Assembly (NCBI GenBank): GCA_036172245.1
Contig: JAYWIR010000108.1
Location: forward strand, 1-64,000
Direction: 5' to 3'
From: Raillietiella orientalis
Lineage: Eukaryota
Length of the DNA: 64,000 bases
The notes below the pieces were generated by a model. The model was not told the origin of the DNA and did no database searches. It was given only the letters and a program-made list of their open reading frames with translations. The position numbers were made by a program, and so were the translations under genes. This document shows positions 1-64,000 of this stretch, piece after piece. The first letter of the stretch is position 1. Each line of letters opens with the position of its first letter.

Positions 1-1564
1 GGCCCTCGAAAAATCCCGGGGGCGGGCGGTTAAAGGGAAATGCTCGCAGAACACCCGGACGGAGGCCTTAAAAAATACCCAATTCGTAAGACTCTTGAGC
101 GTAACGCCTTTCAGGAATTCATGAAGGTGTTCCTATGCTGCTGAGAGTCGCGTTCAGTTCCCCGGCACACGACACTCCCTGGATGGAGGTCTGTTGTTGC
201 GAAACCGCATCACGAAATTCACCCGGGAATGGTCCGACAGCGTCGATGCGATCTTCCCCCGTTTGCCGGCCCGTGAACACAAGTAAGCGTCCAGGAAGAC
301 GTGGACGATGCTGCAGACCATTCTTTCACCTGCGAACAGGTTCAGCACACGCATGGCGCCGCAAAACTCGTTCATCGCGTTCTCTTGTGTTTCATGTTCA
401 CCAGTTCGCAGTCGAAGATTGAGAACTCCGGTTATCAGGTAAGCCTTTCGCACGTTCGTGTTCGCCACACAGTCGCGTTCCAGGGATTCAAGCAGCCTGG
501 TACGGTTGCTATATCCCTTTTGACCGGTATGGGCGTACACATTCGTGACAATCAGATGGATCGAGACGGAGCAGCCGAAAATCAGCTGAGCGACCCGGTC
601 GACGTCATCGAAACGCACGCCTTTCACGGCAGCGTCGATGGCTGGCTTGACGAAGAACGCGACTCCGCAGGTGTTGCGAAGGCCGCATTGCCGTTACATC
701 CTATCCCCCGCGATCGACTTGATCTCCTGGACGTCTGCCGCGAAGATCACGTGGATCTCCTGCAGCCGGGCACGTTGAGTTCACGCAAAGTGTCGGCTGT
801 ACCTCGCCTGTTACCGTCGTCGCGCACCCCGTTGACATTCCAACAGGCCGCGCGGAACCGACGGCGACTGGCGAGCCCACGTTGTACTCATGGGAAAGTG
901 GCAGTCCGGCGTCCGCCACCTACCAGGGCAAGATGCTAGGTGGAGGAGGAGGGTCAGGTGGTGAAGGCACATAATCCCCCTCCTGCATGGGTAACAGCGC
1001 GCCGAGCGGGTCACCCACAGGTGGGGTCGCGCCTACCTGTTTTCCCTTCTTAATGGAGGCGGGCTGTTCAGGGTCGGCGACTGCAGGGAGGACTTTACCT
1101 ATTTGCTCACCCTCCACCATGGGGTGGCCATTTCGACAACTTCGGAACGTTGGAATTCCTCCTTTGGGGTTCCTACGCTGGCGACGGCTTCCGTCTTCTC
1201 CTCCTTGCTGGAGGAAGGGAAGCACCTCCTGGGCTTCTGGGACTTGCGTTGCGATTTCCTAGGGGTGCCTTTGAGGAGGAGGAGCTACTTCATGCATCTA
1301 GGTCTGACTTACGTAAGGAAGGCTTCTCTGCGGGATCCGGCCTTCGTACGGCCTTGCGCGAGGGGTTCTCCCGCTCGGCCAGCGTCACCGCGAGCTCCTG
1401 TGCCGCCTCTGCGAATGCGACGTCCTCGGCTTCGAAGGGCGCGTCGCGCGGCTCACCCTGTGTGTAAACAGAAGGTTCGCAGTCGCGAGCCTCGGGCGCA
1501 GCGGAAACGGCGAGGGGAGGCTCGTCGCTCCAGGTGGCAGCCTCGGGAACGGTGATGCGTTCGA
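1..1564 (-). mobile_element. Family A L1/Tx1-like element, downstream part (ORF1 C-terminus and APE endonuclease), runs off window
   Basis: Translates to ERITVPE...AFAEAAQELAVTL (ORF1) and RFDD..NVYA..(G)xLN..SDH (degenerate endonuclease). The upstream part continues at ~7291. Confidence 0.85.
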
Positions 1565-2010
1565 TTTTCACCCGTATTTCTCCGGGTCGTTTATTGAAAA
1601 ATAAAATTTATAATGAAATTATGTATGGCTGTGGCAATGCTCCAGTCAGAAGCAAAAAATCACAAGCCTGCCAATTAACCGGTTCCTAGACCGGTATGGT
1701 TCACCAAGGCAGCAGAGGAAAAGGAAAAAACAAAAAACTAAACAAAAAAAACAAAGGGTGGGAGGGAACGGGAAGGGATCACTGATGCTGCTGGGACCGC
1801 ATCATGCCTCTCAGGATGCAGGCAAGCTCTTGTTTGATGTGAACATCCTGGTGGGGCCATCTTGACGCCTTCCTCAGGAATTGGGAGGCGCACTGGATGG
1901 CGTCCTGAACGCTTGGTCCTCCCGTCGCCGTGCTCCATGCGGCTACGATCCCACGAAGGCAGCACAAGGCTGCTATCAAGGACGCTGGCCGAAGAGCGTC
2001 GACAACGATG
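1565..2010 (-). mobile_element. Family D element 3' end (ORF2 C-terminus and 3' UTR)
   Basis: DALRPASLIAALCCLRGIV, TGATCCCTTCCC stop motif, T-rich tract, AATAAA and terminal hairpin ending GGTGAAAA at 1565. Confidence 0.85.
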
Positions 2011-2049
2011 CCAGATTCCAGATTCTGAACACTCCCAGCAAACAACGGT

Positions 2050-5000
2050 TGAGAGCACTCCCAACGACGCTTTCAACGGCGAAGGCTGGCAGACGGTACA
2101 GCCCAGAAAAATGCCCTAGAGTACCGAACGAAGCAAGGGGAAAAAGAAAACGCAGCGCAAAAAACCGTGCCGCGAAAAACTTCGCGCTTGTACGGTAAAA
2201 TTGAAGCGTGTGGAGTCACTCGATGTCGCCACCGGGGGAGCAATCTCCCCCCTCGCGTCCGCCGAAGCGGCGACGGACGATGGCGAACCATCTGGGGGGA
2301 AAGAGGAGGAACTGCGCGCCTCGCTCGACGCGATCGAGGAAGCTGCCTTCCAGCAGGCGGTGGGAGAACTCGAGGCAGAACTGCAATGCCTTGAGAAGAA
2401 CCCTCGGAAAGGCTTACGAAGGCCAGCCGCGAAAAAGGCTCCGGAGGCAGGTGAGGCCGATCCGGACGTCGAAAGTGCGTCCTCTTCAGGGAAGGCGCCA
2501 CCAAAGAAGACGGGACGTAAGTCTCAGAATCCGAGTAGGCGCATCCGGATCAATAAGGAGGCGGATGAATTGGCCCCCGAGGGGGAAGCCGGCAGCGTGG
2601 GAGGCGAGGGTGGGAAGCTCTCATTTCTGGACACCGTGCAGCTGGCGACCACCATGGAGGAGGAATTACAGGTGGGTGAAACCCCCCTTCCTCTGCACGG
2701 CCGTGACGAAGACTCGGCCTCAATGGAGGAGGGAGAAGCGGTGCGCGACGCATCCCCTCCTCCCAGCGTCCCGCTCGACAAGGTAACAGGTGCTTCATTG
2801 CCTCTTTCTTAGGATTAACACCTGGTCTTGCCTATCGTTGTACGATCCGCCTAGCCTGCTGGAACGTCAACGGGCTGCGCGACGACGGTACCAGGCGGGA
2901 TACGGTTGACACCCTGCGCGACTTTGACCTGGCGCTCCTGCAGGAGATCCAAGTGTTCACCGCGGAGAACGCCCAGGAGATCGAGAGGATCGCAGGAGGT
3001 CGTCTGTTTTGGCAATGCAGCGCTCGCAACACCTGTGGCGTCGCCTCCATCATGAAACCAGCAGTCGTCTCCTTCGACAATGACGTACGCTTCGACAACG
3101 ACAGTCGGGTTGACCAGCTCATCCTTAGGTGGTCCGACTCGATCGAGGTTGTCGTTACCAATGTGTACGCTCCGAGCGAAAGATGCGGGTACAAGGATAG
3201 TTCCCGGTTCCTTGAATCCCTGAAGCGCGACTGGCTGACGAATACAAACGTGCGCAAAGTGCATCTGATTAGTGGCGATTTCAACATTTGCCTGGTCTCA
3301 GGTGTGCCATTCGGGAAAAAAGACGCAGTTCACGAGCTGTGCGCTGCTATGCACACGCGCAACTGGTTAAGGGACCTACCGGAAATGGTCCAAAGCGTGG
3401 ACCACGTCTTCCTTGACTCCAACCTGTGCCCACGAGTCGACAGACGAGAGAAACTTTCGTCGACGCTATCGGACCATTTCCGGTTGATATTCAAGGTTAT
3501 GCCTCGCGACAAAGGACCACCATCCAAGGCGTGGCGTCTGCCCGGGGAATTGACGCGCATCTCAGGTGCGGCGAAACATCTCCTCCAAGTACTAGGAGGC
3601 GTGATCCTCCGGAATCTCCAAGACTGGGACCGCATAAAGGCCTCGGTCCGCGAGTTCTGCGAAGAGTTCTCTGTGCACCGCCTTCCCCGGGGATTTAGTG
3701 AGGAAACATGCAACGAAGGAACGTATTTGCACTACCATCGTTTCGCGAGGACCCCTGACATCGGTCGCTTGCCGAGTACAATGCCTGGGCCAAGCGTCAG
3801 GACTGGCAAAACCGGGCCGTCTTGCGTGCTGGACGACCTGGACCAGGAATACTCGGACCCGGCATCGATACGTCGCCTGGTGCGTAGATTTTACTCCTTT
3901 TTACGCCTGGGTACCTGCGGAGTGGGACGTCTTGCGGCGCTTGCTTCCAGATGGAGCCCCGGCCATAGGGCAGGAGGAGAAACAAAGCCTTGACGATCCT
4001 GTTACGGACCGATGAAATCATCACCGCTATTGAAAGGCTCAAGAGGCGTAAGACGCCAGGGGAGGATGGCCTGCCGACGGAGTTCTTTGAGTGCTTTTCT
4101 GCAGAGCTCACCCTCCTGGTGCTCCAATTGACACAACTGATCCGAAACGAAGGCGATGTTCCCGCTTCGTTTCGGTTAGCCAGGGTGAGGCTCCTTCCTA
4201 AAGGAGGAGACCTTAGAAAATTATGCAACTGGCGTCCGATCACGATTGTGAACACGGACGCCAAGCTGCTGGCTTAACTGTGAGCTGCGCGACTGGGGCG
4301 CGTAGCCGACAGCTTCGTCAGCCTGGAACAGACGTACGCTGTCCTCGGGCGAAGCATGAAAGTGAACCTGTTCTTCGCCAGCACATAGTTCCATGTGCAA
4401 CGCGAGAAAAATCTAGAAAAAAAACGGAATGTCGACAAAGATGATTGGAGGGCGCCAGCGAAGCAAGTAAGGAACGACTAAGAAAAGAAGGGGGCTCTAG
4501 CGATCGCAGTCGATCTGCACAAAGCGTTCGATTGCGTGGACCAGAAACTTTTTCAGGAGCTTCTGGATCGCATGAGCTTCCCGGATACCTTAACGGCCTA
4601 CCTGCGCGCCTGCTGGCGCAATGCGAAAATCAACTTGTTTTTTAGAGGACAGCACGTGTTAGGCGTGCCGGTGAGGCGCGGCTTCCGGCAGGGCGACAGC
4701 CTTAGTCCACTGCTCTGTAGCACCTATTTCAAACTGGTGCTCAGAGCATACAGGGTGACATTGGCTGGCCTGCCAAGCTCGTGTCCAGGGACGCCGGCCG
4801 TGTCGGCGTATGTTGACGAACTTTTGCTCCTGCTGCCCATGTCAGCCCCGGCTTCGGCAGTCGAAGATTTCTTCGACTTCCTGAGCCGTAAGACAGGATT
4901 ACGGGTGAGCAGACCCATGTCGTCGCTGGTTGCGGTTGGTGCAAAGTGGGCAGGACGACCTGATTGAATTTGCCTGGGGATCCCCACGGAGAGGTACTGG

Positions 5001-6557
5001 AAGTACCTCGACGTTCAGTTAGGGGACTTCTACCAGTCAAAAGCCTGGTCAGGTCGTCTCCAAAAATTAAAGTCAGCGATCGGCCCGTTCCTGCAAGGCA
5101 AGCTTCACTTGCCGGAACGGGCTGCGGTGTAAAACGCGTTCGCAGCCCCCTCCTTCACTCTCTGCTTTTTGTTTGCCCCGTATTTCGTGAACTGAAAAAA
5201 AGAACAAAGGACCTCGTACGGAACGCCCTGTGGGGCGGCCGGAGGCTTCGTTTGCCTTTAAAGGATTTGAGCTCTCCACGTCGGGACGGAGATCTGAGCG
5301 TCCTCACGATGAAGCGAATGGAAACACAACTGCGGTGGCGTACTCTAGCCATCGCAGCGAAAATGTGGAAAACGTCTTGGTGCGTGCCAGCTTGCTCGTT
5401 CGCCAGACCTGTGTTCGGGACTGAAGGACTCGCGTCTTTTCTTCTGTGCAGCAGCCGTAAAATAAGAAGATGCGGACTTCTCCTGGGACGCATGGCCACC
5501 CTGGCGAAGGAGAACGGGTAAATGGCCTGCAGCCCCGCCAACTCCAGCGCATGGCTAGAAGAAACAGTTGGAACGTGGGCAAAGTTAAAAGACATCAGTA
5601 AAGAATCCTGCAACCGCCTGCGCACAGGCATCTACACCCGCTGTATGCTGCGAAACATGATGGTGTGTCCCGCCAGAAGAACTTTGGCGGAAAAAACTCC
5701 ACTGGCCACGGCGCTGCCCTTCCTACGAAGGGCGCTTCAAAACAGCCGGAAGCCGAGATGGCAAGACTCCTGCCAGATAGCGGGCAAGGAGAAGGATCTA
5801 AGCGGGTGGACAATGAGGAAACTGGCAGACGCCGCAACCTCAAGCGTTCATCCGCATGAAATACGGAGATGGGGTGAGCTGCTTGGCATCCCGGCGGATG
5901 ACCTAGAGTAGCCCCTGTTATTTGGAGACGCATCCACTCTCCTCCTCAAGTGGCAGAAAACGGCGCTGTTGTTGTTGCACTGAGGTCTTCCTTGCAACGC
6001 GCGCCGCCATCCCTCCCCCATCTGTTAGTGGACTGCGCTGCCCTCCGGCCCTTGTGGGAACGTTATGCTACGACCCTCCCTATGCCGGTCGGCAGTAACC
6101 CCAGAGACGCTGTGAGACTCCTCTTCGTGCGAGACGCCCTGCCACCAGACTCAACACTGACAGCGCTCTGTTGCCTCCAATTTATTGTGGCCGCCTGGTG
6201 CGCAGCTAACAGAGGAAGCAGCGACAGGGATTCCATCGTACACGCGGGTCGCTACCTGCGAATCGCGATTGGCTTGTGTCATCTGGGAGCTATGACGAGG
6301 GAACTCGAGGGTTTCCTGGAAAGGATAGTCCCTTCCTCTAGCGGGTTGTGATCCCTTCCCGGCCCTTCAAATAGTTTCTTTTTGTTATTTGATTTATTTT
6401 TTTTTTGTTTTACCCCCTATCCCGTCCGCTGCCGAGGAGGACAAGCTGGCCGCAGAACCGGCTTCCTGGCAGGTCCCATAGAATATTGGCCGTAGCGGGG
6501 CCTAGTACCGTAATGTTAAGTGTTTTTCAATAAACGCCCCTGTGTGACCAAGTGAAG
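2050..6557 (+). mobile_element. Family F (A-related) element, 5'-truncated, inserted antisense in a family D copy
   Basis: ORF1 tail (EGWQTV, RACTVKLKRV); broken ORF2 ~2818-6351 with NVYAP, GDFN, SDH, PGEDGLP, WRPIT, GFRQGDSLSPLL, YVDE; AATAAA at 6529-6534. The left boundary is uncertain. Confidence 0.85.
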
Positions 6558-7290
6558 GCTCCCCAGGTCCACTGTTGTCGACAGGCGTTGCAAGGGAGTC
6601 CCCAGTAATGCAACAGGAATGCCGACTCTTGCCATTTTATGGGGAGGATGGAAGTGTTCATAAGAACAGAAAGCCACTTCAGATGTTCAATCGGAACATC
6701 CAGCAGCGCTCTCCAGCGCAGAAGTCCATTAGGAGGCGTACTCGGGGTCAAGCATCAGTTAGCTGGCCCGTCTTCCACTCTCTCTGCTTCTTGTCCTTCC
6801 CAGAGATTTTTATTGTAATCTCCCACTTCGCCGCAACATCGCTGTCCTGATGTTCCACTAGGGAGTCCAGCGCAGCAGCGAGGAGGGTTCTTCCTGACCA
6901 CGCTCTCTTCTTAGGATCCTCCAGGATCTCACGGAGCGTGCAACTTCTGTAACACCCAAACAGGAACCTTGGTTCCTGTTGGGAAGGATGCATGCCGAAC
7001 TGTATCCACGTGCGAACCGTTTCCTGCAACCAGGCACTACCGTTCGCAGGGAGACAGGTGATCCATAATTGATTTTTCCTTGCCAGCGCAGCCACCCTCC
7101 GTAGCTGAAGCCCACATCGGTTGATCCAGCTTCGATGGAGTGCAAGAAACGACGGAAGTCCCGCCTTGCCGATGGCTTGCTGAAGGAGGAGACGTGCATG
7201 GACGCACCAACGGGTGCACCACAACTCCGGCACAAGTGCCAAAATCCGGAACTAGAGCTGCAGCTCCTGCCGCTCCAATGTTAGGAGGCC
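6558..7290 (-). mobile_element. Family D ORF2 C-terminal fragment, upstream continuation of 1565-2010
   Basis: GLLTLER...LVPELWC...KWQESAFLLHYWGLPCN...WTWGA; joins family A ORF1 at ~7291. Confidence 0.8.
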
Positions 7291-8385
7291 GCTCTTTGTT
7301 CTCCGCGAATGGACCTTTCTTTGCTTTTCTGGCCGCAAGATGTTGTTAGCCCTGTTCCTTTTCCATTACTGCGGAAGGTTTATCTTTTGGGTTTTGCTTC
7401 CGGAGGTTGAGGTGCTCGCAGCTTCTGCCGGCCATCTTCCGCCCTAGGTCTTGCGACCTTCATGTCACGTTTCCCCTGCGCTTCTTTGGCGGCAGGGGAA
7501 ACCGCAGTGGGGCGCTTGCGGCACACAAGCCGAATGTGGCCTTTCTTCCCGCACAGGAGGCACTGTATGTTAAGACACCTCTTACGGAGGTGTCTTACGG
7601 CATCACAGTAGCCGCAATATCATGGTTTTCTTACGTACCAGAGATCCACGCTCTCCAGCGCGACCTTTAGTTTGTGGGGAAGTTCACAATTCTCTTTTGC
7701 GGTGACCCACGCTGCAGCCTGACAACGAAAAATGCTATTGTAGCCGTCGAAAATAATGCATTTGGGCCACAGTGCGTGTACCTTGCCGAACTTTCGGAGT
7801 TCTTCTCCGACCGCAGAGCGAGTCATGCGGCTACTAATGCCGGTCATGTGGACCACCACGGAGAGATCCATTGAAACCGGCAAGATCTTGCGACCGTCAA
7901 CGTTTAGCGGAGCATGGATCAGGCGGTGGGCCAAGGTGATGTCTTTGCACACCATCTCCACCCACTGCTCGCCGCTGAGGACGGAGAGTCCGTCAAGATA
8001 CTTTCCCAGTATGTTCGTTTTTTGCAGTGTGCTGCTAAAGGCGCGTTCAGTCCGGCCTTAAACAAGTTGCCTACCTGGTAGACGAGCGATAACTTGCACT
8101 CGGATGCTTTGTATGCGGCCATCTCCGCCATGGCTTCCGCGCTGGGCGCTGTCACCAAGGCGCTCCATGTCCTCGACGTGGCCAGGGATGACTCCGAGGC
8201 GGATGCCTTTAATGCTGCAGGCTGCAAGGGTGGCCATGCCTTCCTCACGCCTACTTTCATCGCGGTGTCGTCGAGCTTCGTAGCCATCGGAGACCGACGA
8301 TGCACACAGAACAACATACACAAGAAAAAACTCTTTGCTACGACTCTTTTGGAAATGAAGGAAAAACACGTCATTCCCACCTTCC
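7291..8385 (-). mobile_element. Family A element 5' part (5' UTR, ORF1 N-terminus with CCHC knuckles)
   Basis: WSALVTAPSAEAMAEMAAYK, VDLWYV, CGYC..RH....C; TGACGTG motif at 8373-8367. Confidence 0.8.
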
Positions 8386-8584
8386 TTGAGGGGGCTGGCT
8401 GCAAAGAGGCAGCCAGCTCCTTCGCCGCTCGCGCGAAGGCTTTGTCATCGATGGTGAGGTCGATGACGAACGCCGCAGCCGGCTCCCTCCCCTCGCTGTT
8501 GACAGAGTCAACAGAGGGGTTGTCGTTCGTAGCGGCAAGTTCTTTCTTGCAGCAGTCAGGAATACGCTCCACGATAACGCTGCA
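8386..8584 (-). mobile_element. Family D-type ORF1 fragment
   Basis: CSVIVERIPD...DDKAFARAAKELAASLQP, matching the ORF1 at 49394-50572. Confidence 0.75.
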
Positions 8585-16890: not shown

Positions 16891-17031
16891 CTCGAGGACT
16901 GGTACGATCTGAAAAAATCGTTCCGGGAGTTCTGCTGCCGGTTTCCCTTGCACCTGCTTCTCCGCGGCTTCAAACAGGGTGTCGCGAACAGCAGATCCTT
17001 TCTGCAGGCGCGTACCTTCTCCAAATCTCCT
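16891..17031 (+). mobile_element. Continuation of family E ORF2 after the family B insertion
   Basis: LEDWYDLKKSFREFC.RFPLH..RGFKQGVANSRSFLQAR is homologous to QDWD...GFGEGVRNERAYLQAR in the other copies. Confidence 0.75.
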
Positions 17032-17350
17032 CTGTGGAGAGAGGACGTGCTTCCCTTGCTCTCCGCCTGCGTGGCAAGGCGAGTAGTTTTTTTCTTGAGT
17101 GGCTTGTGCGTGCACATCGTCGATGTCCAATGCCAGCGTTCCCAGAGGACATCTAGATGGAAGTAGGCCTGAGGGAGGCTTGTTCGTCCCCACAGCCTAC
17201 TGGATCAGGGACATCCACCCCGAAATTGTCCCCAGCGACGCCGAGGTCATGGAGCGCCATGGTGGCCGCGCCTAGAGTGGAAGCCATGGCCGAGATGGAA
17301 GCCTACAAGAAAGCGGGGTATAAACCCTTGCTAGTCTACAAGGTAGGCAA
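17032..17350 (+). mobile_element. Family A 5' fragment (5' UTR and ORF1 start)
   Basis: Closely matches 24249 onward (CTGTGGAGAG.GGACGTGC); WSAMVAAP..EAMAEMEAYKK. Confidence 0.85.
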
Positions 17351-17905
17351 GGTAGGCTTTTGGAGACGGCCGGACCAGGCTTCTGCTGCGCAGAAGTGCC
17401 CCAACGGTACGCCGAGGTACTTGAAGCATTTGCCCGTGGGGATCCCCTAGCGGATCCAGTCCGACCGTCCAGCCCACGCAGAACCAACGAAGACTATGCA
17501 CGACTTCGCCCAGTTCACCTCCAGGCCCGTCCCGCGGCGCAGCAACTCGAAGAAGTCCTCAAGTGCACTCGCCGGGGTGGACCCGGGAAGCAGCAGCAGA
17601 AGATCGTCTGCATAGGCCGACACGGCAGGCGTGCCGGCACACGAGCTCGGCAGTGTTGCCAGAGTTACCCTGTATGCCCTCAGCACCAACTCGAAGTAGA
17701 TACTGAAGAGCAAGGGGATCAGGCTGTCACCCTGCCGGATACCGCGGCGGACTGCCACGCCGTACACGTGCCGGCCGCTGAAACCAATATTAATTGACAC
17801 GATGCGCCAGCAGGAGCGCAGGTAGGACTGGAGCACAGCCGGGAAACCCATGCGTTCCAGGAGCTCCAAAAGGAGTTCCTGGTCGACGCAGCCGAATGCT
17901 CTGCG
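17351..17905 (-). mobile_element. Family C reverse transcriptase fragment (downstream half of a host split at KAFD)
   Basis: AFGCVDQELL...GIRQGDSL...YADD...KYLG. Confidence 0.88.
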
Positions 17906-50830: not shown

Positions 50831-50844
50831 CACAAAGCATTCGA
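50831..50844. repeat. Isolated target-site copy CACAAAGCATTCGA between two tandem family D ends
   Basis: This 14-mer equals the RT H-K-A-F-D coding sequence and the family D TSD; it is flanked by a 5' end and a 3' end. Confidence 0.85.
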
Positions 50845-52952: not shown

Positions 52953-53546
52953 CGCTCTAGGGTGGACGTGTTTTCTCGGTGCTCCTTGTGCCAGGAACTC
53001 TCCCCCAGTGCAAGCGTCGTGTGGTTCGGTGGTCGATCAGGCAGCGATGCCTGACGCGACCATCAGGGATGGCCACGGGGCAGCAGCAGCGCCGCCCCCA
53101 GAGGCGATGGAGAGCCAGGGGGCGGCGGCACCGTCGCCTGCAGAGGCGATGGAGCTGGGGGCATCCAACCCACAGAATCGGTCCCCGCTGCAGCGCGGTC
53201 GTGGAGCGCCGTTGTGTCGGCGCCATCGCCTGCAGTCGCGGCGGAATTGTCGGCCTATGTAGAGGAGGGTACAACCCCTCATTGTTCTACAAGGTAGGCA
53301 ATTTATAATCTTTAGAGAGCGCGCGCGCCTTCTCGAAGGGCATGCGCGCTCTCGATGTGAAAGAGGAGGAGCCCAGCGCTATGACCATCCGCAGCGGGGG
53401 TCAGTACTTTGAGGTCATCTGCAAACATGCAGAGCTGGCCCAACGACTGCTTAAAACCCCCGTAGTGATAAGGATGCGCAGGCTCCTCCGCACTACGGCG
53501 GACCGCAGCATGGTGGTCCACCTGTTAGGCGTGACCGCGCGAATGC
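52953..53546 (+). mobile_element. Family D 5' fragment inserted antisense at the KAFD site
   Basis: Follows TCGAATGCCTTGTT; GGACGTG at 52964; ORF1 begins MPDAT. Confidence 0.87.
52964..52971 (+). promoter_or_regulatory. DPE-like internal promoter motif GGACGTGT (representative copy)
   Basis: The same motif occurs near the 5' end of essentially every element and matches the DPE consensus RGWYV. Function is inferred. Confidence 0.55.
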
Positions 53547-56483
53547 GGACCGATCGCCAACGCTGCTTTTTGGAGACGGTCGGACCAGGCTTCTGCTGCG
53601 CAGAAGTCCCCCAACGGTACGCCGAGGTACTTGAAGCACCTGCCCGTGGGGATCCCCAAGCGGATCCAGTCCGACCGTCCAGCCCACGCCGAACCGACGA
53701 AGACCATGGACGAATTCGCCCTGTTCACCTCCAGGCCCGTCCCGCGGCGCAGCAACTCGAAGAAGTCCTCGAGTGCACTCGCCGGGGTGGACCCGGGAAG
53801 CAGCAGCAGAAGATCGTCTGCATAGGCCGACACGGCTGGCGTGCCGGCACACGAGCTCGGCAGGGTTGCCAGAGTTACCCTGTATGCCCTCAGCACCAAC
53901 TCGAAGTAGATGCTGAAGAGCAAGGGGCTCAGGCTGTCACCCTGCCGGATGCCGCGGCGTACGGGCACGCCGTACACGTGCCGGCCGCTGAAACCGATAT
54001 TGATTGACGCGTTGCGCCAGCAGGAGCGCAGGTAAAATTGAAGCACGGCAGGGAAACCCATGCGTTCCAGGAGCTCCAGAAGGAGATCCTGGTCGACGCA
54101 GTCGAATGCTTTGTGCAAATCGACCGCGACGGCAAAGGCTCCCGCCGAGTCCATCCCACCCTCTGCCCGATCTTCTTGGTCAGAGGGGGGCGCGTGGCTT
54201 CCTTGACCGTCCTGTGCAACGCGTTGTCGCAACTGCCACAATGAGCTGGCGAGGAGCAGGTTGGCATCCACGGTTCGTCCGGGAACAGCATAGGTCTGCT
54301 CGGGACTCACCACGGAAGCGGCCACCCGCCCCAAACGCTCAGTTCACAACTTGGCATACAACTTTGCGTCCGCATTCACTACTGTGATGGGTCGCCAGTT
54401 GCCAATGTTGCGTAAGTCTCCTGACTTCGGCAGGAGACGTACTTTAGCTGACCGGAACGAGGCGGGAACTTCGCCGTGTTCGCGGATCAGCGCACTTAAC
54501 CTGAGCACCAGGGGGGCCAGGTCTGGCGCGAAGCGATGGTAAAACTCCGCGGGCAGGCCGTCCTCCCCTGGTGCCTTCCTTCTCTTGAGCCTGTTGATGG
54601 CGGAGATGTTCTCCGCCATCGTGAACGGTTCCACCAATCTGGAACGGTCCTCCTCCTTGAGCGCGAGAGCGCCATCCGGCAGCAGGCGCTGCGCAAAATG
54701 GCGCTCAGGTGTTAGTGGCGCGTACAAGGAGGAATAAAACTCCCGCACGATGCGGCTTACCTGGGCTGGGCTGGAGCGTTCTTGGCCCTGATGATCCAGC
54801 AGGCAGGCCGAGCCTGACTGCCAGGCCTGCCTCTCCGCCTCAGCCTTGAATTCAGCCAGGCGACGGACGTCGGGTCGCCGGGAATAACGGCGCGCCTGGA
54901 GGTACGCCCGCTCGTTCCTGACACCCTCACCGAAGCCCGGCGGAAGACGTTCCAGCGGAAACTGGTCGCAAAACTCACGGACTGAGCACTTCATTTCGTC
55001 CCAGTCCGCGAGCGTCTGAAGCTGGAATCCTCGCAGGAAACATCGTAGATGTTCCGCCGCTCCTGCGAGGCGCAACCAATCCCCTGGCAGGCGCCATGTT
55101 TTCAGGGGAGCGCCCTTATTGCGCGGATGTAGCTCGAGCACGAGCCGTGGTTGGTCGGACAGCTCTGCCGGGAGCGTTCCTCGAGTTCCCACCCGCGTGC
55201 ACAGGTGGTTGTCGAGGAACATGTGGTCGATGTTCCGATCTCTCCCGGCATCGCCGGCCAACAAGTTGCGCGCATGCATGGCTGCGCACAACTCGTTGAA
55301 CAGCTGTGCTCGTCCGCTGGGCGCACCTGCCAGCAGGCGGAGATTGAAATCGCCCGCAATGAGGTGCGCCCTTCGCACGCCTGCTTCGGCCAACCAGTCT
55401 CGCCGCAAGGTTTCGAAGAACGCAGTGCGTTCCTCGGCCCTATGGCTGCTCACCGGAGCGTACAGGTTCGTGACTACGAGGTCAATCGAGTCGCACCCCT
55501 TGAACACAAGCTGCTCAACTCGACCATCCCCGTCGAACCGTGCACTGCGCAGTGAGTTGTCGACGGTTGGCTTTAGCAGAAAGGCCACTCCGCAGGAGTT
55601 GTCCGTTCCGTTCCTCCACAGTAGCCGCCCTCCCGCGATTCTTTCCATTTCCTGGACATCTCCCGGTCGGAGAACGTGCGTCTCTTGCAGGAGCACCAGG
55701 TCGAAATCTCGCAGTATGGCGGCTACATCTCGCCTCTTTCCGTCGTCGCGCAACCCGTTGACATTCCAACAGGTGATGCGCAAGCGGCGGCAGAAGGCGA
55801 GCCCACGCATTGATGCGTTTATTGTGGGGTGGAGGCGGCCTCCTCCCTTGCGGGAGGCGGCTTGTTGGCGGCCGTGACGACGGTCGGCTGCTCACACAGG
55901 AGCACGTCGTCAACAGCGACTTCCATGGATCTGGCTTCCGAGACACGGATCGGAGAGGGGTCGCGTGGCGCGACGCACATTGCCTCCTCCTCCGTGCCCG
56001 AAGACATGGCATCCTCCACCTGCGGAGGGGCGACCCGTCTCGGTCAACCGGTCTTCTTGCCAGCCTTCCTCTTCGGCACGGCTGCGGAAGTAGAACAACC
56101 GGCTTCGGTTTCGGACTCGGAATTTTCCGGGCCCTTCACCGTTGCCGGTCGTCTCCAGGCCTTCTTCTCGGCCTTGGCAGGCTGCCGTAACATGGCTGCC
56201 AGCTCTTCCGCGGCCTGTGCGAAGGTCGCGTCCGTTATGCGCGCCGCCTCCTCGCTTTCCGCACCGACGCTTTGCGCAGGCGCGACAGGGGCGGCTTCAT
56301 CGATCGGCGCGCAGACGTCCTTCGCTGGCAATGCCGGAACGGCATTGTCGTCAGCTGATGGTGACGTCACTGCGGGCACGACCTGCTCAGGATCGACGGT
56401 ATCGATCGCCTTTTCCGTTACTTTCTTTACGGCTCTGGCGATCGAGACGCGTTCGATCTTCACCGTACAAGCGCGGACGACCG
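53547..56483 (-). mobile_element. Family C element, middle part (ORF1 tail, endonuclease, RT)
   Basis: ORFs 54344-55810 and 53525-54334 with endonuclease and RT motifs; cut in ORF1 at VVRAC. Confidence 0.9.
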
Positions 56484-56575
56484 TAAAGTGAGAGGACGTG
56501 TTTTTCGGTGCTTCCGAAAACCGTCTTTTTTGCGAGTGTCGGTGTTTTTCTAGGTGCGGTCGTTCCTGGGCAGAA

Positions 56576-58245
56576 ATGCCCGAGGACACCGCCGCCACGG
56601 CGAAGGGGGGCGAGCGAGCCTCGTCCCCCCAACCCATGGATGTGAGGGCCATCTCCCCCACGGATTCGTCCCCCGCCCCGGCGAGGGCTTGGAGCGCGGT
56701 GGTGGCGGCGCCTGCGCCGCCCCCCGCAGAGGAACAGCGGGCCTACATGGCCGACGGCTACAACCCGGCCCTACTTTACAAGGTAGGTGGCCTGTACTCC
56801 CCCGCGGTGTTACGATCGTTCGCCGCGGAGTTTAAAAAGTTGAAAGTCCCGGAGGACGAAGTCCTCGGGCTTTCCGTGCGAAGTGGCGGGCAGCTGGTTG
56901 AGCTGAACTGCAAGTCTGCAGGGATGGCTCAGCAGCTGCTCCGCCTGCCGGTGACCGTGAACGGTCGAAGAATCTTCCCGTTCACGGCGGACAACTCCAT
57001 CGTTGTCCACCTCACCGGCATCAACATGCGAATGGCAAAGACCGCCGTTCGCGAATCTTTAGAGCAATACGGAACCATCCACACGTTGTGGGCGAAACCC
57101 AATGTCCTGGGTTACACCAGGGCTTTTAGTGGGTGCGCCACTGCGCGCGTGACAGTCCGTGCCGAGGGTGGGCTACCCCACAGACTACAGGTCGGAGACG
57201 AAGAGATCGACCTGTGGTATGTGGGGAAACCCGTTTACTGCGGCTTTTGCCAGGTGTCGGGGCATTTAAAAAAAAATGCCCCAACATCGTGTGCTTGGGC
57301 TGTGGGGAGAAGGGGCACATCAGGCGGATGTGCCCCAACCGAAAAAGGTCCGTTTCGTCAGGCGCGAGAAAGGAAGAGACGCCAAAGGAAAAGGACCGAA
57401 GCCAACAACTGGCAGAATCCCGCCCTGCCGACCAACCCGCTGCTCAGCCATCCTCCAGCGAACAACCAGCTGGAGAAAGCGCCGAGAACAAGGGAGGTTG
57501 GCAGAAGGTGGTGAAGAAGAAGAAGGCCCCCGTCAAGGAGGTAAAAAGAATTAACAAGGCGGCTCCGAAGAAGCAGAAGCCGGCAGTCCGCGCTTGTTCA
57601 GTGAAAATCGAACGCGTGTCGATCGCAAGAGCCGTGAAGAAAGTAACGGTGAACGCGATTGATACCGTCGTATCGGAGCCGATCGTGCCTGCAGTGACGT
57701 CACCATCAGCTGAAGAGAATGCCGCTCCGGCATTGCCAGCGAAGGACGTCTGCGCGCCGGTCTATGAAGCCGTCCCCGTCGCGCCTGCGCCGATCGTTGG
57801 TGCGAAAAGCGATGAGGCGGCGCGTATCACAGACGCGACCTTCGCGCAGGCCGCGGAAGAGCTGGCAGCCATGTTGCGGCAGCCTGCTAAGGCCGAAAAA
57901 AAGGCCTTGAGACGAACGGCGACAGCGAAGGGCCCGGAATCTTCCGGGTCGGACGCTGAAGCCGGTTGCTCTACTTCCACAGCCGTGCCGAAGAGAAAGG
58001 CTGGAAAGAAGGTCGGATGCCTGAGACGTGTCCCCTCCTCCCAAGTAGACGAGCCCATGTCCTCGGGCACGGAGGAGGAGGCAATTTGCGCCGCACCACG
58101 CGACCCTTCTCCCGTCCGTGTCACGGAAGCCAGCCCAATGGAAGTCGCTGGAGACGACGTGCTCCCGGGTGAGCAGCCGACCGTCGTCACGGCCGCCAAC
58201 GAGCCGCCTCCCGAAAGGGAGGAGGCCGCCTCCACCCCACCATAA
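56576..58245 (+). pseudogene. Family C ORF1 with a single frameshift in an A-run near 57270
   Basis: CGFCQVSGHLKKKC and CLGCGEKGHIRRMC split between two frames. Confidence 0.88.
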
Positions 58246-58253
58246 ATACACCA

Positions 58254-61200
58254 ATGCGTGGGCTCGCCTCCTGCCGCCGCTTGCGCATCACCTGTTGGAA
58301 TGTCAACGGGTTGCGCGACGACGGAAAGAGGCGAGATGTAGCCGCCATACTGCGAGACTTCGACCTGGTGCTCCTGCAAGAGACGCACGTTCTCCGACCG
58401 GGAGATGTCCAGGAAATCGAAAGAATCGCAGGAGGGCGGCTACTGTGGAGGAACGGAACGGACAACTCCTGCGGAGTGGCCTTTCTGCTAAAGCCAACCG
58501 TCGACAACTCACTGCGCAGTGCACGGTTCGACGGGGATGGTCGAGTTGGGCAGCTTGTGTTCAAGTGGTCCGACTCGATCGACCTCGTTGTGACGAACAT
58601 ATACGCGCCAGTGAGCAACCACGGGGCCGAGGAACGCACTGCGTTCCTCGAATCCCTGCGGCGAGACTGGCTGGCTGAAGCAGGCGTACGGAAGGCGCAC
58701 CTCATTGCGGGCGATTTCAATCTCCGCCTGCTAGCAGGTGCACCCAACAGACGAGCACAGCTGGTCAACGAGTTGTGCGCAGCCATGCATGCGCGCAACT
58801 TGTTGGCCGGTGATACCGGGAGAGATCGGAACATCGATCACATGTTCCTCGACAACCACCTGTGCACGCGGGTGGGAACTCGTGGAACGCTCCCGGCAGA
58901 GCTGTCCGACCATCCACGGCTCGTGCTCGAGTTACATCCGCGCAATAAGGGCCCTCCCCTGAAAACATGGCGCCTGCCAGGGGATTGGTTGCGCCTCGCA
59001 GGAGCGGCGGAACATCTACGCTGTTTCCTGCGAGGATTCCAGCTTCACACGCTTGCGGACTGGGACGAAATGAAGTGCTCAGTCCGTGAGTTTTGCGACC
59101 AGTTTCCCCTGGAACGTCTTCCGCCGGGCTTCGGTGAGGGTGTCCGGAACGAGCGGGCGTACCTACAGGCGCGCCGTTATTCCCGGCGTCCCGACGTCCT
59201 TCGCCTGGCTGAATTCAAGGCTGAGGCGGAGAGGCAGGCCTGGCAGTCAGGCTCGGCCTGCCTGCTGGATCATCAGGGCCAAGAACGCTCCAGCCCAGCC
59301 CAGGTAAGCCGCATCGTGCGGGAGTTTTATTCCTCCTTGTACGCGCCACTGACACCTGAGCGCCATTTCGCGCAGCGCCTGCTGCCGGATGGCGCTCCCG
59401 CGCTCAAGGAGGAGGACCGTTCCAGATTGGCGGAACCGTTCACGATGGCGGAGATCATCTCCGCCATCAACAGGCTCAAGAGAAGGAAGGCACCAGGGGA
59501 GGACGGCCTGCCCGCGGAGGTTTACCATCGCTTCGCGCCAGAGCTGGCCCCCCTGGTGCTCAGGTTAAGTGCGCTGATCCGCGAACACGGCGAAGTTCCC
59601 GCCTCGTTCCGGTCAGCTTAAGTACGTCTCCTGCCGAAGTCAGGAGACTTACGCAACATTGGCAACTGGCGTCCCATCACAGTAGTGAATGCGGACGCAA
59701 AGTTGTATGCCAAGTTGTGGGCTGAGCGTTTGTGGCGGGTGGCCGCTTCCGTGGTGAGTCCCGAGCAGACCTATGCTGTTCCCGGACGAACCATGGAGGC
59801 CAACCTGCTCCTCGCCAGCTCATGGTGGCAGTTGCGACAACGCGTTGCACAGGACGGTCAAGGGAGCCTCGCGCCCCCTCTGACCAAGAAGATCGGGCAG
59901 AGGGTGGGATGGACTCGGCGGGAGCCTTTGCCGTCGCGGTCGATTTGCACAAAGCATTCGACTGCGTCGACCAGGATCTCCTTCTGGAGCTCCTGGAACG
60001 CATGGGTTTCCCGGCCGTGCTCCAGTCCTACCTGCGCTCCTGCTGGCGCAACGCGTCGATGAATATTTGTTTCAGCGGCCGGCACGTGTACGGCGTGCCA
60101 GTGCGCCGCGGCATACGGCAGGGTGACAGCCTGAGCCCCTTGCTCTTCAGCATCTACTTTGAGTTGGTGCTTAGGGCATACAGGGTAACTCTGGCAGCCC
60201 TGCCGAGCTCGTGTGCCGGCACGCCTGCCGTGTCGGCCTATGCAGACGATCTTCTGCTGCTGCTTCCCGGGTCCACTCCGGCGAGTGCGCTCGAGGATTT
60301 CTTCGAGTTGCTGCGCCGCGGGACGGGCCTGGAGGTGAACCGGGCGAAGTCGTCCATGGTCTTCGTCGGTTCGGCGTGGGCTGGACGGTCGGATTGGATC
60401 CGCTTGGGGATCCCCACGGACAGGTGCTTCAAGTACCTAGGCGTTCCGATGGGGGAATTCTGCGCAGCAGAAGCCTGGTCCGACCGTCTCCAAAAGGCAG
60501 CGTTGGCGACCGGTCCGTTCCAAGAAAGCAAGCTTTACTTGCAGGAACGGGCCGCGGTGTGGAACGCGTTTGCGGCCCCCCTTCTTCGCCCCCTACTTTT
60601 TGTGTGCCCCGCCCCTTACTTCATCCGTAAACGAGCAGCGGGCCTCCTGAGGACAGTCCTTTGGGGCAAAGGGAGGTCCCGTGTGAGGCTCAAAGACTTG
60701 TGCGCTCCACGTAAGGACGGAGGACTTGGCGTTCTTACGCTGGAGCGCATTGAACTACAACTCCGGTTCAGGACTCTCGCCCTTGCGGCGGAATTGTGGG
60801 ACACGCCTTGGTGCGTTCCAGCACGCCTCCTGGCCCAACGAGCCTGCGGATTCGACGGACTTTTGTCGTTTCTGCTGGCACGCGACCGCAGAGAAGCACA
60901 CGGCTGCTTAATCCTGCGTCGCATGGAAGTTGCGGTACGGGAGAACGCCTGGATCTCCTGCCGCCCAGGGAACTGCTCTGCATGGCTGCACGAGTCAGTG
61001 TCCACCTGGGTAAAGATCCACGTTTCGGCGGGCACAAGAAACACTTGCCTGCAAAGGCACGCCCGCTGGAAACTGCAGGAGATCGTGCAGTCCCACGAAA
61101 CGCGCATGTGGGCTTTGATTACCCCCCTTGCCCCAGTGCTGCCCTTCCTCATCGACGCCAGGGACAGTAGGGAGCTTGGGAAATGGAACGTGTCCTGCAC

Positions 61201-61810
61201 TATTGGAGGCAGGACACAAACGATTATGGCGTGGACCTCTCGGCAGCTAGCGGACGCTGCGACACCGAGAGTCCCGCCTAACGGAATTCGACGCTGGGGC
61301 GAGCTACTCGGACTATCTCCGGAGGAGATGAAGTGGCCCCCGGCGTCCTGGAACAGTGGATCCCTTCCCCTGAAATGGCAGGATGTGGCGTTGCTTGTGG
61401 TCCTCTGGGGACTTCCATTCAAAGCACGCCTTCATCACACAACCCGGGGGGCTGTGGATCCTTATTGTGACCGGTGCGGGGAAAAAGAGACCTTCCCCCA
61501 CCTTCTAATCGAGTGCAGTGCCATCCGCCCTTTATGGGATCGCCTTACGGCGATCCTGGACTTGCGCGGATGCGGCCCTAAGGACGTTTTTAGGCTCCTC
61601 TTCCGTAGTGACGCCTTGTCCCCCTCCTCTTCTGTAGCAGTCCTCTGCTGCATTCGAGGGATCGTGGCGGCTTGGAACGCCACCAGAAGAAGACGTCAGC
61701 CCACTGGCAACGCCTTACGGTTCACCCGCCTATTCGTCCGAGACGTCTGCAAGTGGCGCCACTTGGGCGCAGAGAGGACTCAGCTTGTACGGATCCTAAA
61801 TAGGATCTAG
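58254..61810 (+). pseudogene. Family C ORF2 (APE endonuclease, RT, zinc finger); nonsense codon at 59619-59621 and a frameshift near 59875
   Basis: All catalytic motifs are present: WNVNG, LQE, NIYAP, GDFN, IDH, SDH, DLHKAFD, GIRQGDSLSPLLF, YADD, KYLG, CDRC..HLLIEC. Confidence 0.92.
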
Positions 61811-62034
61811 AGGACCTATCCGCCCGCACGGTGATCCCCTCCCTGCCCTCCCATTCCCGAAACATTTGCTCCCTCCCATACTTCAACTATTTGTTTGTTT
61901 TTTGTTTTGTTCTTTCCCAACCCCCGCGGATCGGATGGACCTCTACGGCATAGCGCCCGTAAATACCAAGCTGTTTTGTAGTGGTGGACCTTTGGGTTCA
62001 CCACGCGACAATCCATTGTGATTTTATTCTTTTG

Positions 62035-62064
62035 AATAAATGCCCCGGCATATCCGGGTGAAAA
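62035..62064 (+). terminator. Element 3' terminus: AATAAA and GC-rich hairpin (representative copy)
   Basis: AATAAA-TGC-CCCGG-CATAT-CCGGG-TGAAAA; recurs at element 3' ends throughout the window. Confidence 0.7.
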
Positions 62065-63001
62065 CGCGGACGACCGGTTTCTGCTTCGGTCCTGTTCCTT
62101 CGGCGTGTCTGCTTTCCTCGCGCCTGTAGGAACTGACCTTTTTCTGTTGGGGCACATCCGCCTGATGTGCCCCTTCTCCCCACAGCCCAAGCACACGATG
62201 TTGGGGCATTTCTTCTTCAGGTGCCCCGACACCTGGCAAAAGCCGCAGTATACGGGTTTCCCCACATACCACAGGTCGATCTCCTCCTCCCCGACCTGCA
62301 GTCTGTGGGGTAGCCCACCCTCGGCACGTACCGTCACGCGCGCAGCGGCGTAACCACTAAATGCCCTGGTGTAACCCAGGACATTGGGTTTTGCCCACAA
62401 CGCGTGGACCGTCCCGAACTTCTCCAAACTTTCCCGAACGGCGGTCTTGGCCATTCTCATCGTAATACCGGTGAGGTGGACAACGATGGAGTTGTCCGCC
62501 GTGAACGGGAAGATTCTTCTCCCGTTCACGGTCACCGGCAGGCGGAGCAGCTGCTGAGCCATCCCTGCAGACTTGCAGTTCAGCTCAACCAGCTGCCCGC
62601 ACTCCTAACCGAAAGTCCGAGGACTTCGTACTCCGGGACGTTCAATTTCTTGAACTCGGCCGCGAACGACCGCAAAACCGCGGGGGAGTACAGGCCACCT
62701 GCCTTGTATAACAAGGCCAAGTTATACCCGTCGGCCATGTAGGCCCGCTGTTCCTCTGCGGGTGGCGGCGCAGGCGCCGCCACCACCGCGCTCCAAGCCC
62801 TCGCCGGGGCGGGGGACGATTCCGTGGGGGAGATGGCCCCCACATCCATGGGCTGAAGGGACAAGGCTCGCTCGCCCCCCTCCGCCGTCTTTGCGGCGTC
62901 CTCGGGCATCTCTGCCCAGGAACAACCGCTCACAGCTTACAGCCCCGAAAACACTCGCGAGAAAAACGCGGAGCACCACAAAAGCACGTCCAATCTCTCA
63001 G
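62065..63001 (-). mobile_element. Family C element 5' part (5' UTR and ORF1 N-terminus), upstream half of the host split at 56483
   Basis: GGACGTG at 62991; inverted match to ~56560-57400; an internal deletion joins DRS to KQKP through CCGAAG microhomology. Confidence 0.88.
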
Positions 63002-63009
63002 GCAGCGGG

Positions 63010-63190
63010 TTGTTCACACCCGGATGTGCCGGGGCATTTATTTCATAGAAATAAAATTACAGAAAAATGTCGCGTGGCGAACCCGAAGGTTCACCACTCC
63101 AAAACAGCTTGCTGCTTACCGGCTCCGTGCCGGAGAGGTCCTTCCGATGCGCGGGGATGGGAAATAAAGAAAAACAAAAAGAAACAAGTC
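63010..63190 (-). mobile_element. Family C isolated 3' UTR fragment
   Basis: Inverted match to ~61895-62064, including AATAAA and the hairpin. Confidence 0.8.
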
Positions 63191-63362
63191 TTCACGCGTT
63201 GTGGGCAAAACCCAAACAAAAAGGAAGCGGTCTTCTCGCCTTCCTCACCTGAAACTGCGGCGTTCACAGGCATTTCTGCTTGTCAACGGCCGCGAAACAC
63301 ACACGAAATACCAGGCAAGAAAAACTCCCTATCCACGGAGCGCACAACAATCGCGACCGCCG

Positions 63363-64000
63363 TTTGCCACCCGGATATGCCGGGGCATTTATTATTCTAA
63401 TTTTCTACAAAAATTAGATAATAAAGTCTTTCAAAAGTTAATTGTGGGAAACACTTGGTTTTCCCACCTTGGTTGACGTGTCTGTTGCCGGTGCATAGAC
63501 CGGTTAGGTCCATTCCCGAGACGCATGGAAAGGAAAAACTAGAACAAAAACAAACAAAAAGAGAGATAACGGGGGAGGGAAACAGATGTATGGGAGAGGG
63601 GGGGGAGCAGGGAAGGGATCACTGGGCGCCTGGGTCGGTCCTCCGCATCCTGTTCAGGATGCAGTCAAGTTCACTTTTTATCGTGAAAGATAGACGTCAC
63701 CTTGTCGCCGTCTCTAAAGAGATCGTTGTCCAGTGGATGGCGACCATGCATCTTGAGCCTCTTCATCTGGCGCGCCACCTTTGCACAATGCCGCGCACGC
63801 AGCAGAGGACTGCTAGAGACGCAGCGGGGCGCAGGCCGTCACGAAGAAAGAGGCGACGGTAAATTTCCTGAGGGTCGCCTACTGGAAGATGAAGGATTGG
63901 GGCGATTCGACTCCAGAGTCCATCCAGGGCGACACACTCGAGGGTGAGATGCGGGAAGGTTTCTCTTTCTCCGCACTCGACACAGCGGGCATCCACATTC
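63363..64000 (-). mobile_element. 3' end of a further C-related element, runs off window
   Basis: CVECGERETFPHLTLEC, TGATCCCTTCCC, T-tract, AATAAA followed by CCCGG-CATAT-CCGGG. Confidence 0.85.

Follow-up and report, generated by a model that had tools for sequence, protein, structure and literature searches.

The 64-kb window analyzed here (the whole stretch of 64,000 nucleotides, positions 1 to 64,000 of contig JAYWIR010000108.1 from Raillietiella orientalis) is filled wall to wall by long interspersed nuclear elements (LINEs) of the L1 superfamily. Eight of its 11 element 3' ends lie base-precisely at four homologous coding positions, where the element tail is followed directly by the antisense of a coding motif, and each position is used by a particular family. 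This recurrent-junction pattern, noticed in a first-pass annotation of the sequence, is confirmed and goes far beyond chance; family-specific targeting is well supported within the window. We consider it likely, with a probability of roughly 0.75, that the window is part of a genomic island of nested LINE families, each of which nicks its own site in the coding sequence of its relatives, and we infer that the site specificity holds genome-wide.

Insertion junctions at four coding positions

All copies were placed on a common coordinate, that of the copy ref1 (56484-62064), by tblastn with the ref1 open reading frames (ORFs), and the junctions were then inspected base by base. The four positions, the family groups using them and the 3' junctions were as follows; copy names refer to the map given below.

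KAFD in motif A of the reverse transcriptase (RT): X group; tail, then CGAATGCTTTGCG; X-a 23410/23411 and F21 50844/50843
GFG after the endonuclease (EN): Y group; tail, then GCCGAATCCCCG or CCCAAATCCCGCG; Y-a 30026/30027, Y-b 33668/33667 and F19 44905/44904
Leu codon before xDWD: B group; tail, then antisense Leu codon; F8 11350/11349 and F17 42249/42250
'VRAC' in ORF1: C group; tail, then CGCGGACGACCG; ref1 62064/62065

Nine 5' ends were located at the same four sites (X-a, X-b, X-c, Y-a, Y-b, F18, F8, ref1, and F7), among them that of X-c in the KAFD of F21 and that of the E-family element F7 at 'PC/SV' of an X-group ORF1. The pairs of family and site proposed in the first-pass annotation (KAFD, GFG, DWD, and ORF1 RAC) were upheld; the families are here named X, Y, B, and C, with E also at RAC. 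All eight site insertions with an identifiable host are antisense to it, in agreement with the 'mostly antisense' of the earlier reading; this follows if the recognized strand is the host sense strand. Target-site duplications (TSDs) comprise 13 nt for X-a (one mismatch), 12 nt for Y-a and 12 nt for ref1; the first-pass annotation had counted three of 12-14 bp. Two further insertions, F8 and Y-b, have 0 nt and 0-3 nt, respectively.

The targets had also been described as conserved. The sites are indeed homologous positions, but nucleotide conservation of the 12-nt target windows corresponded to percentiles of 87 (KAFD), 74 (GFG), 46 (DWD), and 12 (RAC); strong DNA conservation is found at KAFD only, and DWD and RAC are not conserved in nucleotides. 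GCATTCG was present at the KAFD site of eight copies, two of which are occupied while six intact ones are empty; a third use survives only as a remnant at 50833-50843. The Y-group and Z copies carry GCGTTCG at KAFD (4518, 27919, and 35782 on the - strand) and none of these three is occupied. These numbers are too small to call resistance, and the off-site insertion F2 did use GCGTTCG.

Families

Families were delimited, independently of the insertion site, by identity matrices that covered 13 copies for the EN region, 11 copies for the RT region and 11 ends for the last 400 nt. The three matrices yielded the same groups, so that the several families recognized in the first-pass annotation are borne out; at least five related families were distinguished (X/X', Y/Z, B, C, and E).

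X group: X-a, X-b and X-c; 88-94% identity within the group
X' subfamily: F21 and F2/F4; about 72-86% to X
Y group: Y-a, F18, Y-b, F1, F14 and F19; 72-91% in EN
Z, related to Y: F3; 66-72% in EN to Y-group copies
B group: F8 and F15/F17; 75-79%
C group: ref1, H1, F10 and F12, with F26 being C-like; 87-95%
E, an outlier: F7/F9; 53-58% to all others

The APE (apurinic/apyrimidinic) endonucleases of the families are about 50-60% identical in protein. The ratio of nonsynonymous to synonymous substitution rates (dN/dS) was determined for 14 pairs (12 of copies from one family group, two of copies from different groups) and amounted to 0.14-0.44 in 13 of them; most of the divergence therefore arose in functional lineages, under selection, before insertion.

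Chance controls and independence of events

Family and site matched in 12 of 12 events, for which the odds are 1 in 207,900 under free permutation and 1 in 25,200 with one X and one Y event discounted. Random trials were carried out with eight junctions on a 5.6-kb element in two orientations, a coincidence being defined as ±2 nt on the same strand; at least two coincident pairs were obtained in 104 of 2,000,000 trials.

Hosts of different families were found at single sites. GFG hosts belong to the Y group (F14), the C group (F12) and the B group (F15/F17), KAFD hosts to the C group (F10/F12) and X' (F21), and DWD hosts to E (F7) and the Y group (F18). Furthermore, at three junction pairs the identity of the flanks was lower than that of the inserts by 10-18 points.

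KAFD 5' junction pair: flank identity 71.5%, insert identity 89.2%
GFG 3' junction pair: flank identity 63.6%, insert identity 76.6%
DWD 3' junction pair: flank identity 57.4%, insert identity 68.4%

Because the hosts at one site differ in family and the flanks are more diverged than the inserts, a single duplicated ancestral junction per site is rejected; the first-pass annotation had named this case, one ancestral insertion later duplicated, among those that would overturn its reading.

In two head-to-tail pairs, nothing but a piece of target separates the tail of the upstream element from the 5' end of the downstream one, namely CGAATGCTTTG in F21/X-b and GCCGAATCCC in F19/F18. Remnants of 10-11 nt are the expected product of re-cleavage at the upstream TSD copy; at most 10-11 nt downstream of the nick, plus the upstream host context, would therefore be enough for recognition. 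One to three off-site insertions are located at look-alike sequences, with their orientation following the look-alike. The tail of F2, GTGAAAAT, adjoins CGAACGC in the ORF1 of F1 (the 'ALER/I' point) in sense orientation, a look-alike of the KAFD target; a Y-like 5' end comes after the look-alike CTCCAAATCTCC; and F3 may lie next to the look-alike GCTCCCCAGG. Head-to-tail remnants and look-alike insertions together suggest sequence-directed nicking. No likeness was seen between the tails and the host sequence lying upstream of the nick, which makes simple homology-driven joining unlikely.

Coding domains of the elements

L1-superfamily LINE sequence accounts for 96.6% of the window, counting whatever is matched either by another part of the window or, in tblastn, by the ORFs of one copy. 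What is left, six stretches of 83-1164 bp and the final 4 bases, belongs to untranslated regions (UTRs) or ORF1 tails of the same elements. The GC content is 55-63% across the whole window. In a self-BLAST, nearly every part had several relatives elsewhere in the window, with 66-94% identity, on both strands and with sharp breakpoints. An Rfam search of the window gave no match.

The elements are ~5.5-5.8 kb long and, judged by their sequence, are L1-superfamily LINEs, because they carry Exo_endo_phos and RVT_1 domains and readable Cys motifs and have human L1 ORF2p as the closest solved structure; the L1-like nature stated in the first-pass annotation stands, whereas the Tx1 part of its label is tentative. 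The Pfam domain PF03372 (Exo_endo_phos) was matched with E 2.8e-17 (63.7 bits, cut-off 24.5) and in a second copy with E 1e-11, and the catalytic N, E, D, and H columns of the APE endonuclease are invariant in all six aligned copies. PF00078 (RVT_1) passed its cut-off with E 5e-22, whereas PF13966 (zf-RVT) reached 25.0 bits, just under the cut-off of 27.5; a CX2CX7HX4C motif can be read at the C-terminus of ORF2 in the ref1 translation. Two CX2CX4HX4C zinc knuckles, of the kind known from ORF1 of plant and Tx1 elements, are readable in the ORF1 translations, their Pfam zf-CCHC matches being below cut-off (E 0.002-0.008). The families all have an APE endonuclease and an RT, together with a putative C-terminal Cys motif and a putative two-knuckle ORF1. 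The top matches in the PDB were human L1 ORF2p structures (8UW3, 8SXT, and 8C8J; E 1e-25 to 1e-16), ahead of R2 (E 1e-16 vs 7e-8).

Element ends

None of the 11 3' ends carries an A-tail. Nine of them consist of AATAAA (AATTAA in Y-b), 2-3 nt, a CCCGG-loop-CCGGG hairpin and a tail of 6-8 nt; the hairpin is degenerate in F3 and F19. In all nine tails tested CCCGG/CCGGG was the predicted fold. The energies alone are weak (z from -0.7 to -4.1), and the conservation of CCCGG/CCGGG across families is the stronger argument for the predicted hairpin. A second hairpin, in which a U-rich run pairs with AAUAAA just upstream of the CCCGG/CCGGG hairpin, was predicted in seven of nine folds; examples in the 3' UTRs are 42206-42225, 62023-62040, and 50870-50886 on the - strand.

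Full-length 5' ends have GAG(N)GGACGTG(T/C)TTTT in common, a motif that precedes the ORF1 ATG by ~100 nt. When five full-length copies were aligned, it ranked among the best-conserved 12-mers across families, and it may be an internal promoter or start-site element. Ends with the 5' motif are located at 17906, 24249, 52951, and 56484 on the + strand and at 16890, 39335, 44894, 50832, and 63000 on the - strand.

Proposed mechanism

The ORF2 endonuclease of each family would nick one short sequence on the sense strand of the host LINE: X after GCATTCG in RT motif A (KAFD), Y after GGATT(C/T)GG(C/G), which encodes GFG in the linker following the endonuclease, B after the Leu codon preceding xDWD, and C, probably also E, inside or beside the ORF1 R(A/E/P)C codons. 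By analogy with R1 and Tx1-type elements, the endonuclease rather than RNA-DNA pairing would set the site specificity; for R1Bm, an extract of PMC1919474 describes a sequence-specific endonuclease. The nick would prime reverse transcription from a fixed RNA 3' end comprising AAUAAA, the CCCGG/CCGGG hairpin and a short tail without poly(A); the hairpin may serve as the RT entry signal and thereby determine where reverse transcription begins, as in 'stringent' LINEs. Priming at a nick in the sense strand would place the new copy antisense in its host. A second nick would follow 0-13 nt away, and since most of the site is restored by the duplication, the TSD copy on the upstream side could be hit again, giving head-to-tail pairs. 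Hits at look-alikes, 5' truncations, target deletions and later recombination would account for the remaining junctions.

Alternative explanations and points against the proposed reading

The same junctions would recur if one ancestral insertion per site had been copied by segmental duplication of the nest, with recurrence simply inherited. Long alignments do cross junctions (e.g. 17358-18502 versus 52405-53547 and 25664-30920 versus 38034-32769), X-a and X-b may be duplicates of one insertion (dN/dS 0.79, the sole exception among the 14 pairs), and flank and insert of the GFG 5' junction pair are about equally diverged (identities of 65.0 vs 67.9%), a pair that shows no difference and is uninformative. 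Duplication nevertheless appears very improbable in view of the different host families at one site, the excess divergence of the flanks at the other three junction pairs, the low dN/dS of the other 13 pairs, and the head-to-tail pairs, in which only 10-11 nt of target are left. Insertion might also be site-specific through pairing of the nicked target with a read-through RNA that carries a copy of the downstream target, the endonuclease being weakly specific; such pairing has reportedly been proposed for R1Bm. Poly(A)-less ends at a fixed base ~30 nt after AATAAA, with transcripts that may include the first downstream TSD bases, would fit this explanation, as would the position of each resident copy beside its own target and the rare use of the frequent GCRTTCG. 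However, the nick is base-precise across hosts that differ in their downstream sequence, look-alike insertions share just 7-8 nt with the canonical target, and the target retained downstream of the nick amounts to just 10-11 nt in both head-to-tail re-insertions; we therefore consider RNA pairing unlikely. Recombination, inversion between conserved motifs of inverted copies, or misassembly could finally be held responsible, since several junctions join internal positions with microhomology (17350/17357, 53546/53547, 7290/7292, and 45798-45813) and none of the listed contigs of the public run X1 bridges a junction by 31 nt on both sides. At the four sites, however, one partner is always a complete terminus, either the hairpin tail or the 5' motif GAGNGGACGTG, and never internal sequence, and three insertions have TSDs of 12-13 nt, so that this explanation is hardly credible.

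Several observations weigh against nicking of a family-specific site in relatives. The evidence comes from one 64-kb window with 2-4 events per site, and the remaining three 3' ends are off-site (F2 at 1564, F3 at 6556, and F26 at about 63012). The two DWD targets are alike at about 6-7 of 12 nt only, and the 12-nt window at RAC is poorly conserved. Of the 41 GCRTTCG copies in the window, about five are used; recognition must therefore be longer or context-dependent. Every copy examined contains frameshifts or stops and no copy in the window has intact ORFs, hence current activity is only putative. Y-a is flanked by C-group sequence on the left (87% to ref1) and by Y-group sequence on the right in spite of a perfect 12-nt TSD, and a crossover or microhomology-based joining right at the TSD is the suggested cause; the flanks of F15/F17 and of F19 also do not make up one host. 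Moreover, F10 and H1, both of the C group, break off within the RT at almost coinciding positions (reference ~60496-60517; 17350/17357 and 53546/53547), which could reflect two deletions or one older shared break. To explain such awkward junctions one would have to assume distant 5' joining, deletions or crossovers, each of them plausible in an array of this kind. Beyond the window, a metagenome scan with a four-sequence alignment found one locus with 35% identity and no match to the ref1 ORFs at E 1e-3, and the tail-plus-target pattern gave 39 matches in prokaryote genomes, with about 35 expected by chance and none encoding the LINE.

Map of the nest

The window was resolved into the following features.

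1-1563, - strand: F1, Y-group fragment (EN N-terminal and ORF1 C-terminal parts), host of F2; EN 81-82% to Y-a and F18
1564-2010, - strand: F2, 3'-terminal 450 bp of X', same element as F4; 86% to the F21 3' end
2069-6556, + strand: F3, 5'-truncated Z-family element, antisense in the ORF2 C-terminal region of X' F4/F2, outside the four sites
6557-7290, - strand: F4, X' fragment, reference 60728-61453; 89.6% to 51449-52170
7292-8380, - strand: F5, Y-like 5' end and ORF1 N-terminal part
8384-8584, - strand: F6, X-group ORF1 fragment from the Cys codon of R(A/E/P)C ('PC/SVIVERI'); 81-83% to ORF1 of X-a and X-b
8586-11349, + strand: F7, family E, 5' end antisense at the RAC site of F6; cut at L/xDWD by F8
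11350-16890, - strand: F8, full-length B-group element, antisense at L/xDWD of F7/F9; TSD 0 nt
16891-17031, + strand: F9, rest of host F7, opening with 'LEDWYD...'
17032-17350, + strand: Y-like 5' fragment, 88% to 24232-24568; 5' flank CTCCAAATCTCCT like the Y target; microhomology cut at 17350
17357-17905, - strand: F10, C-group RT fragment, from KAFD downstream; 93% to ref1 and H1; 17893-17905 is the left TSD of X-a
17906-23410, + strand: X-a, full-length X-group element, antisense at KAFD of a C-group host; TSD 13 nt (17893-17905 and 23411-23423)
23411-24248, - strand: F12, C-group fragment, GFG to KAFD; 87% to ref1 and H1
24249-30026, + strand: Y-a, full-length Y-group element at GFG; TSD 12 nt (24237-24248 and 30027-30038)
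30027-31520, - strand: F14, Y-group fragment, ORF1 C-terminal part to GFG; right flank of Y-a
31521-33667, + strand: F15, B-group, 5'-truncated in ORF1, up to GFG; EN 75% to F8
33668-39335, - strand: Y-b, full-length Y-group element, antisense at GFG of F15/F17; TSD 0-3 nt; ~11 extra nt at the 5' end
39336-42249, + strand: F17, rest of F15 from just past GFG; 3' end adjoins F18 at L/xDWD, antisense
42250-44894, - strand: F18, Y-group, 5' end to L/xDWD; EN 91% to Y-a
44895-44904, - strand: 10 nt left of a GFG target, GCCGAATCCC, separating F19 (3' end) from F18 (5' end)
44905-45805, - strand: F19, 5'-truncated Y-group element, head-to-tail at the TSD copy of F18; 74% to the 3' part of Y-b
45806-50832, - strand: X-b, X-group element minus the last ~520 bp; 88.7% to X-a over 5 kb
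50833-50843, - strand: 11 nt left of a KAFD target, CGAATGCTTTG, separating F21 (3' end) from X-b (5' end)
50844-52950, - strand: F21, X', KAFD to 3' end, head-to-tail at the TSD copy of X-b; own KAFD occupied by X-c
52951-53546, + strand: X-c, first 596 bp (5' part) of an X-group element, lying antisense in the KAFD site of F21; identity 93.6% to X-b, 89.2% to X-a
53547-56483, - strand: downstream part of the C-group host H1, RAC site to reference 60517; 93.8% to ref1
56484-62064, + strand: ref1, full-length C-group element, antisense at RAC in ORF1 of H1; 12-nt TSD CGCGGACGACCG (56472-56483 and 62065-62076)
62065-63000, - strand: upstream part of H1, 5' end to RAC site; 87.9% to ref1 56494-57402
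63012-64000, - strand: F26, C-like 3' part, head-to-tail before the H1 5' end

F15 and F17 form one B-group element that is the host of Y-b, and F2 and F4 are continuous apart from 147 bp. The insertion of F3 into F4/F2 comes with this 147-bp host loss relative to F21, and a stretch of about 60 bp lies between F2 and F3 at 2010-2069. X-c is cut in ORF1 by a non-canonical junction. The 12 nt between F26 and the H1 5' end match no known target. In the C-group flank of Y-a, the 12-mer at 24237-24248 fits the Y-group version and not the GFG sequence of ref1 itself. The cuts in F10 and H1 each face the cut ORF1 of a different + strand element, with the microhomology CTTTTxGA in one case and a CGGACCG-like one in the other.

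Searches beyond the window

A search for protein homologues gave 68 matches, one of which (P0001) is 67% identical, the other 67 being at most 35% identical. In sequence space the elements stand isolated. Named homologues are unclassified plant, fish, and frog proteins with 25-31% identity, with no named algal match among them. The ESM Atlas returned generic RVT_1/zf-RVT clusters only, none of taxonomic use, and the tail-plus-target pattern had no match in viral contigs.

The public run X1 shares 43% of the sampled ref1 words; it was the only such run, and no RNA run was listed. On 42150-62140 it contributed 1036 short contigs, 555 of them <90% alike and 883 <95% alike; many further copies must therefore exist in that sample. 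Only 3% of the aligned X1 sequence runs on into unlike sequence, which is weakly in line with copies nested in one another, the contigs being too short for flank counts. Nearly all listed X1 joints arise from mosaic mapping, in which different copies are connected at homologous positions. One joint, 42243 to 49635, connects a B-like hairpin and AATAA with antisense X-b ORF1 at a point 12 nt beyond the Cys codon of 'NEC' on its 3' side. Combined with the 5' junction of F7, this joint may fit an E-family insertion with a TSD of ~14 nt, but is a mere lead because its shorter side is 25 nt. The 3' end of family E is absent from the window. Runs X2 and X3 give no evidence of the elements; their thousands of short contigs fall only on A/T-rich low-complexity 3' UTR spots (45065-45115 and 51008-51046).

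Relation to known systems

The rDNA LINE lineages R1, R2, R4-R9 and RT each have their own exact site in one multicopy unit and re-insert in tandem at regenerated targets. There the shared target is a host gene, the rDNA, whereas the target unit in the window is the LINE itself; a guild of this kind would therefore create and renew its own target supply. In its logic, this division of rDNA sites appears to be the nearest analogue. Target-specific LINEs of the Tx1 clade include Xenopus Tx1L and Tx2L, which insert into the DNA transposons Tx1D and Tx2D, and also Keno, Kibi, Koshi, and Mutsu. Like the elements of the window they are L1-group LINEs with an APE endonuclease and strict sequence-specific insertion into repeats including other transposons. 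The targets of these named elements are DNA transposons, small RNA genes or microsatellites and not the ORFs of sister LINE families. Human L1 has the same order of EN, linker, RT and Cys motif and KAFD in motif A, but nicks loosely at TTTT/AA, has a poly(A) tail and is dispersed. The targets of sequence-specific LINEs of the Tx1 and R1 clades include 'transposons' (PMC4640811), and the Tx group is credited with 'a target-specific insertion' (PMC3747384).

Zepp of Coccomyxa ('Chlorella' C-169) and ZeppL of Chlamydomonas and relatives are presented, in excerpts of the respective papers, as self-nesting L1-type clusters made of transposable elements (TEs) only and as putative centromeres (PMC8226300; PMC3446292; 10.1101/2022.06.16.496473; 10.1101/2025.03.28.645958). 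Both are L1-type LINEs that land in existing copies and form TE-only clusters of tens to hundreds of kb; nested clusters arising by insertion into existing copies are likewise present in the window. Table 3 of PMC3747384 lists (A)n tails for Zepp, whereas none of the 11 3' ends of the window has an A-tail, and a passage of PMC5203782 gives a Zepp ORF1 without a CCHC domain, compared with the two knuckles readable here. In addition, Zepp arrays consist mostly of 3' ends of a single family, whereas the insertions in the window are mostly full-length and antisense and belong to at least five coexisting families, each with a base-precise site in a coding motif. Identity with a green-alga Zepp cluster is not supported, given the lack of poly(A), the CCHC knuckles in ORF1 and the AATAAA ends. 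Cnl1 of Cryptococcus, a non-LTR (long terminal repeat) element in nested arrays, is a single subtelomeric family, and the passages of PMC9942834 describe no partition among families. For Celine, a centromeric LINE, the corresponding passages describe no strict target sequence.

The literature search found self-nesting single families and TE-targeting LINEs but no multi-family partition of sites inside LINE ORFs, a provisional result, as subscription journals and Repbase Reports were largely outside the search. Target-specific LINEs and self-nesting LINEs are thus known; sister families that each have a base-precise site in the ORFs of their relatives are provisionally new.

Meaning of the finding

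As a broader and tentative interpretation, given slightly less than an even chance, sister LINE lineages with APE endonucleases would have diverged to at least four specificities of ~10 nt, each aimed at coding positions of the guild itself. Such a guild would sustain itself by making its own target supply and would live almost wholly within its own copies, in TE-only islands, possibly centromere-like ones, in which each new copy inactivates a relative. It would supply a set of LINE endonucleases re-targeted by nature and an example of transposons partitioning niches on other transposons. The sparing of host genes and a selected disruption of competitors, as put forward in the first-pass annotation, are conjectural.

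If the specificity holds genome-wide, sister families can rapidly acquire different target specificities of their APE-type LINE endonucleases, and the families would offer matched natural enzyme-target pairs for studies of DNA reading and for the engineering of site-directed retrotransposons. It would also suggest a simple origin for TE-only islands such as Zepp-type putative centromeres: since the elements carry their own landing sites, the island could grow without touching genes. It would be a clear example of related parasites sharing out the sites within a single resource, much as R-elements share out rDNA, the resource here being the parasites themselves.

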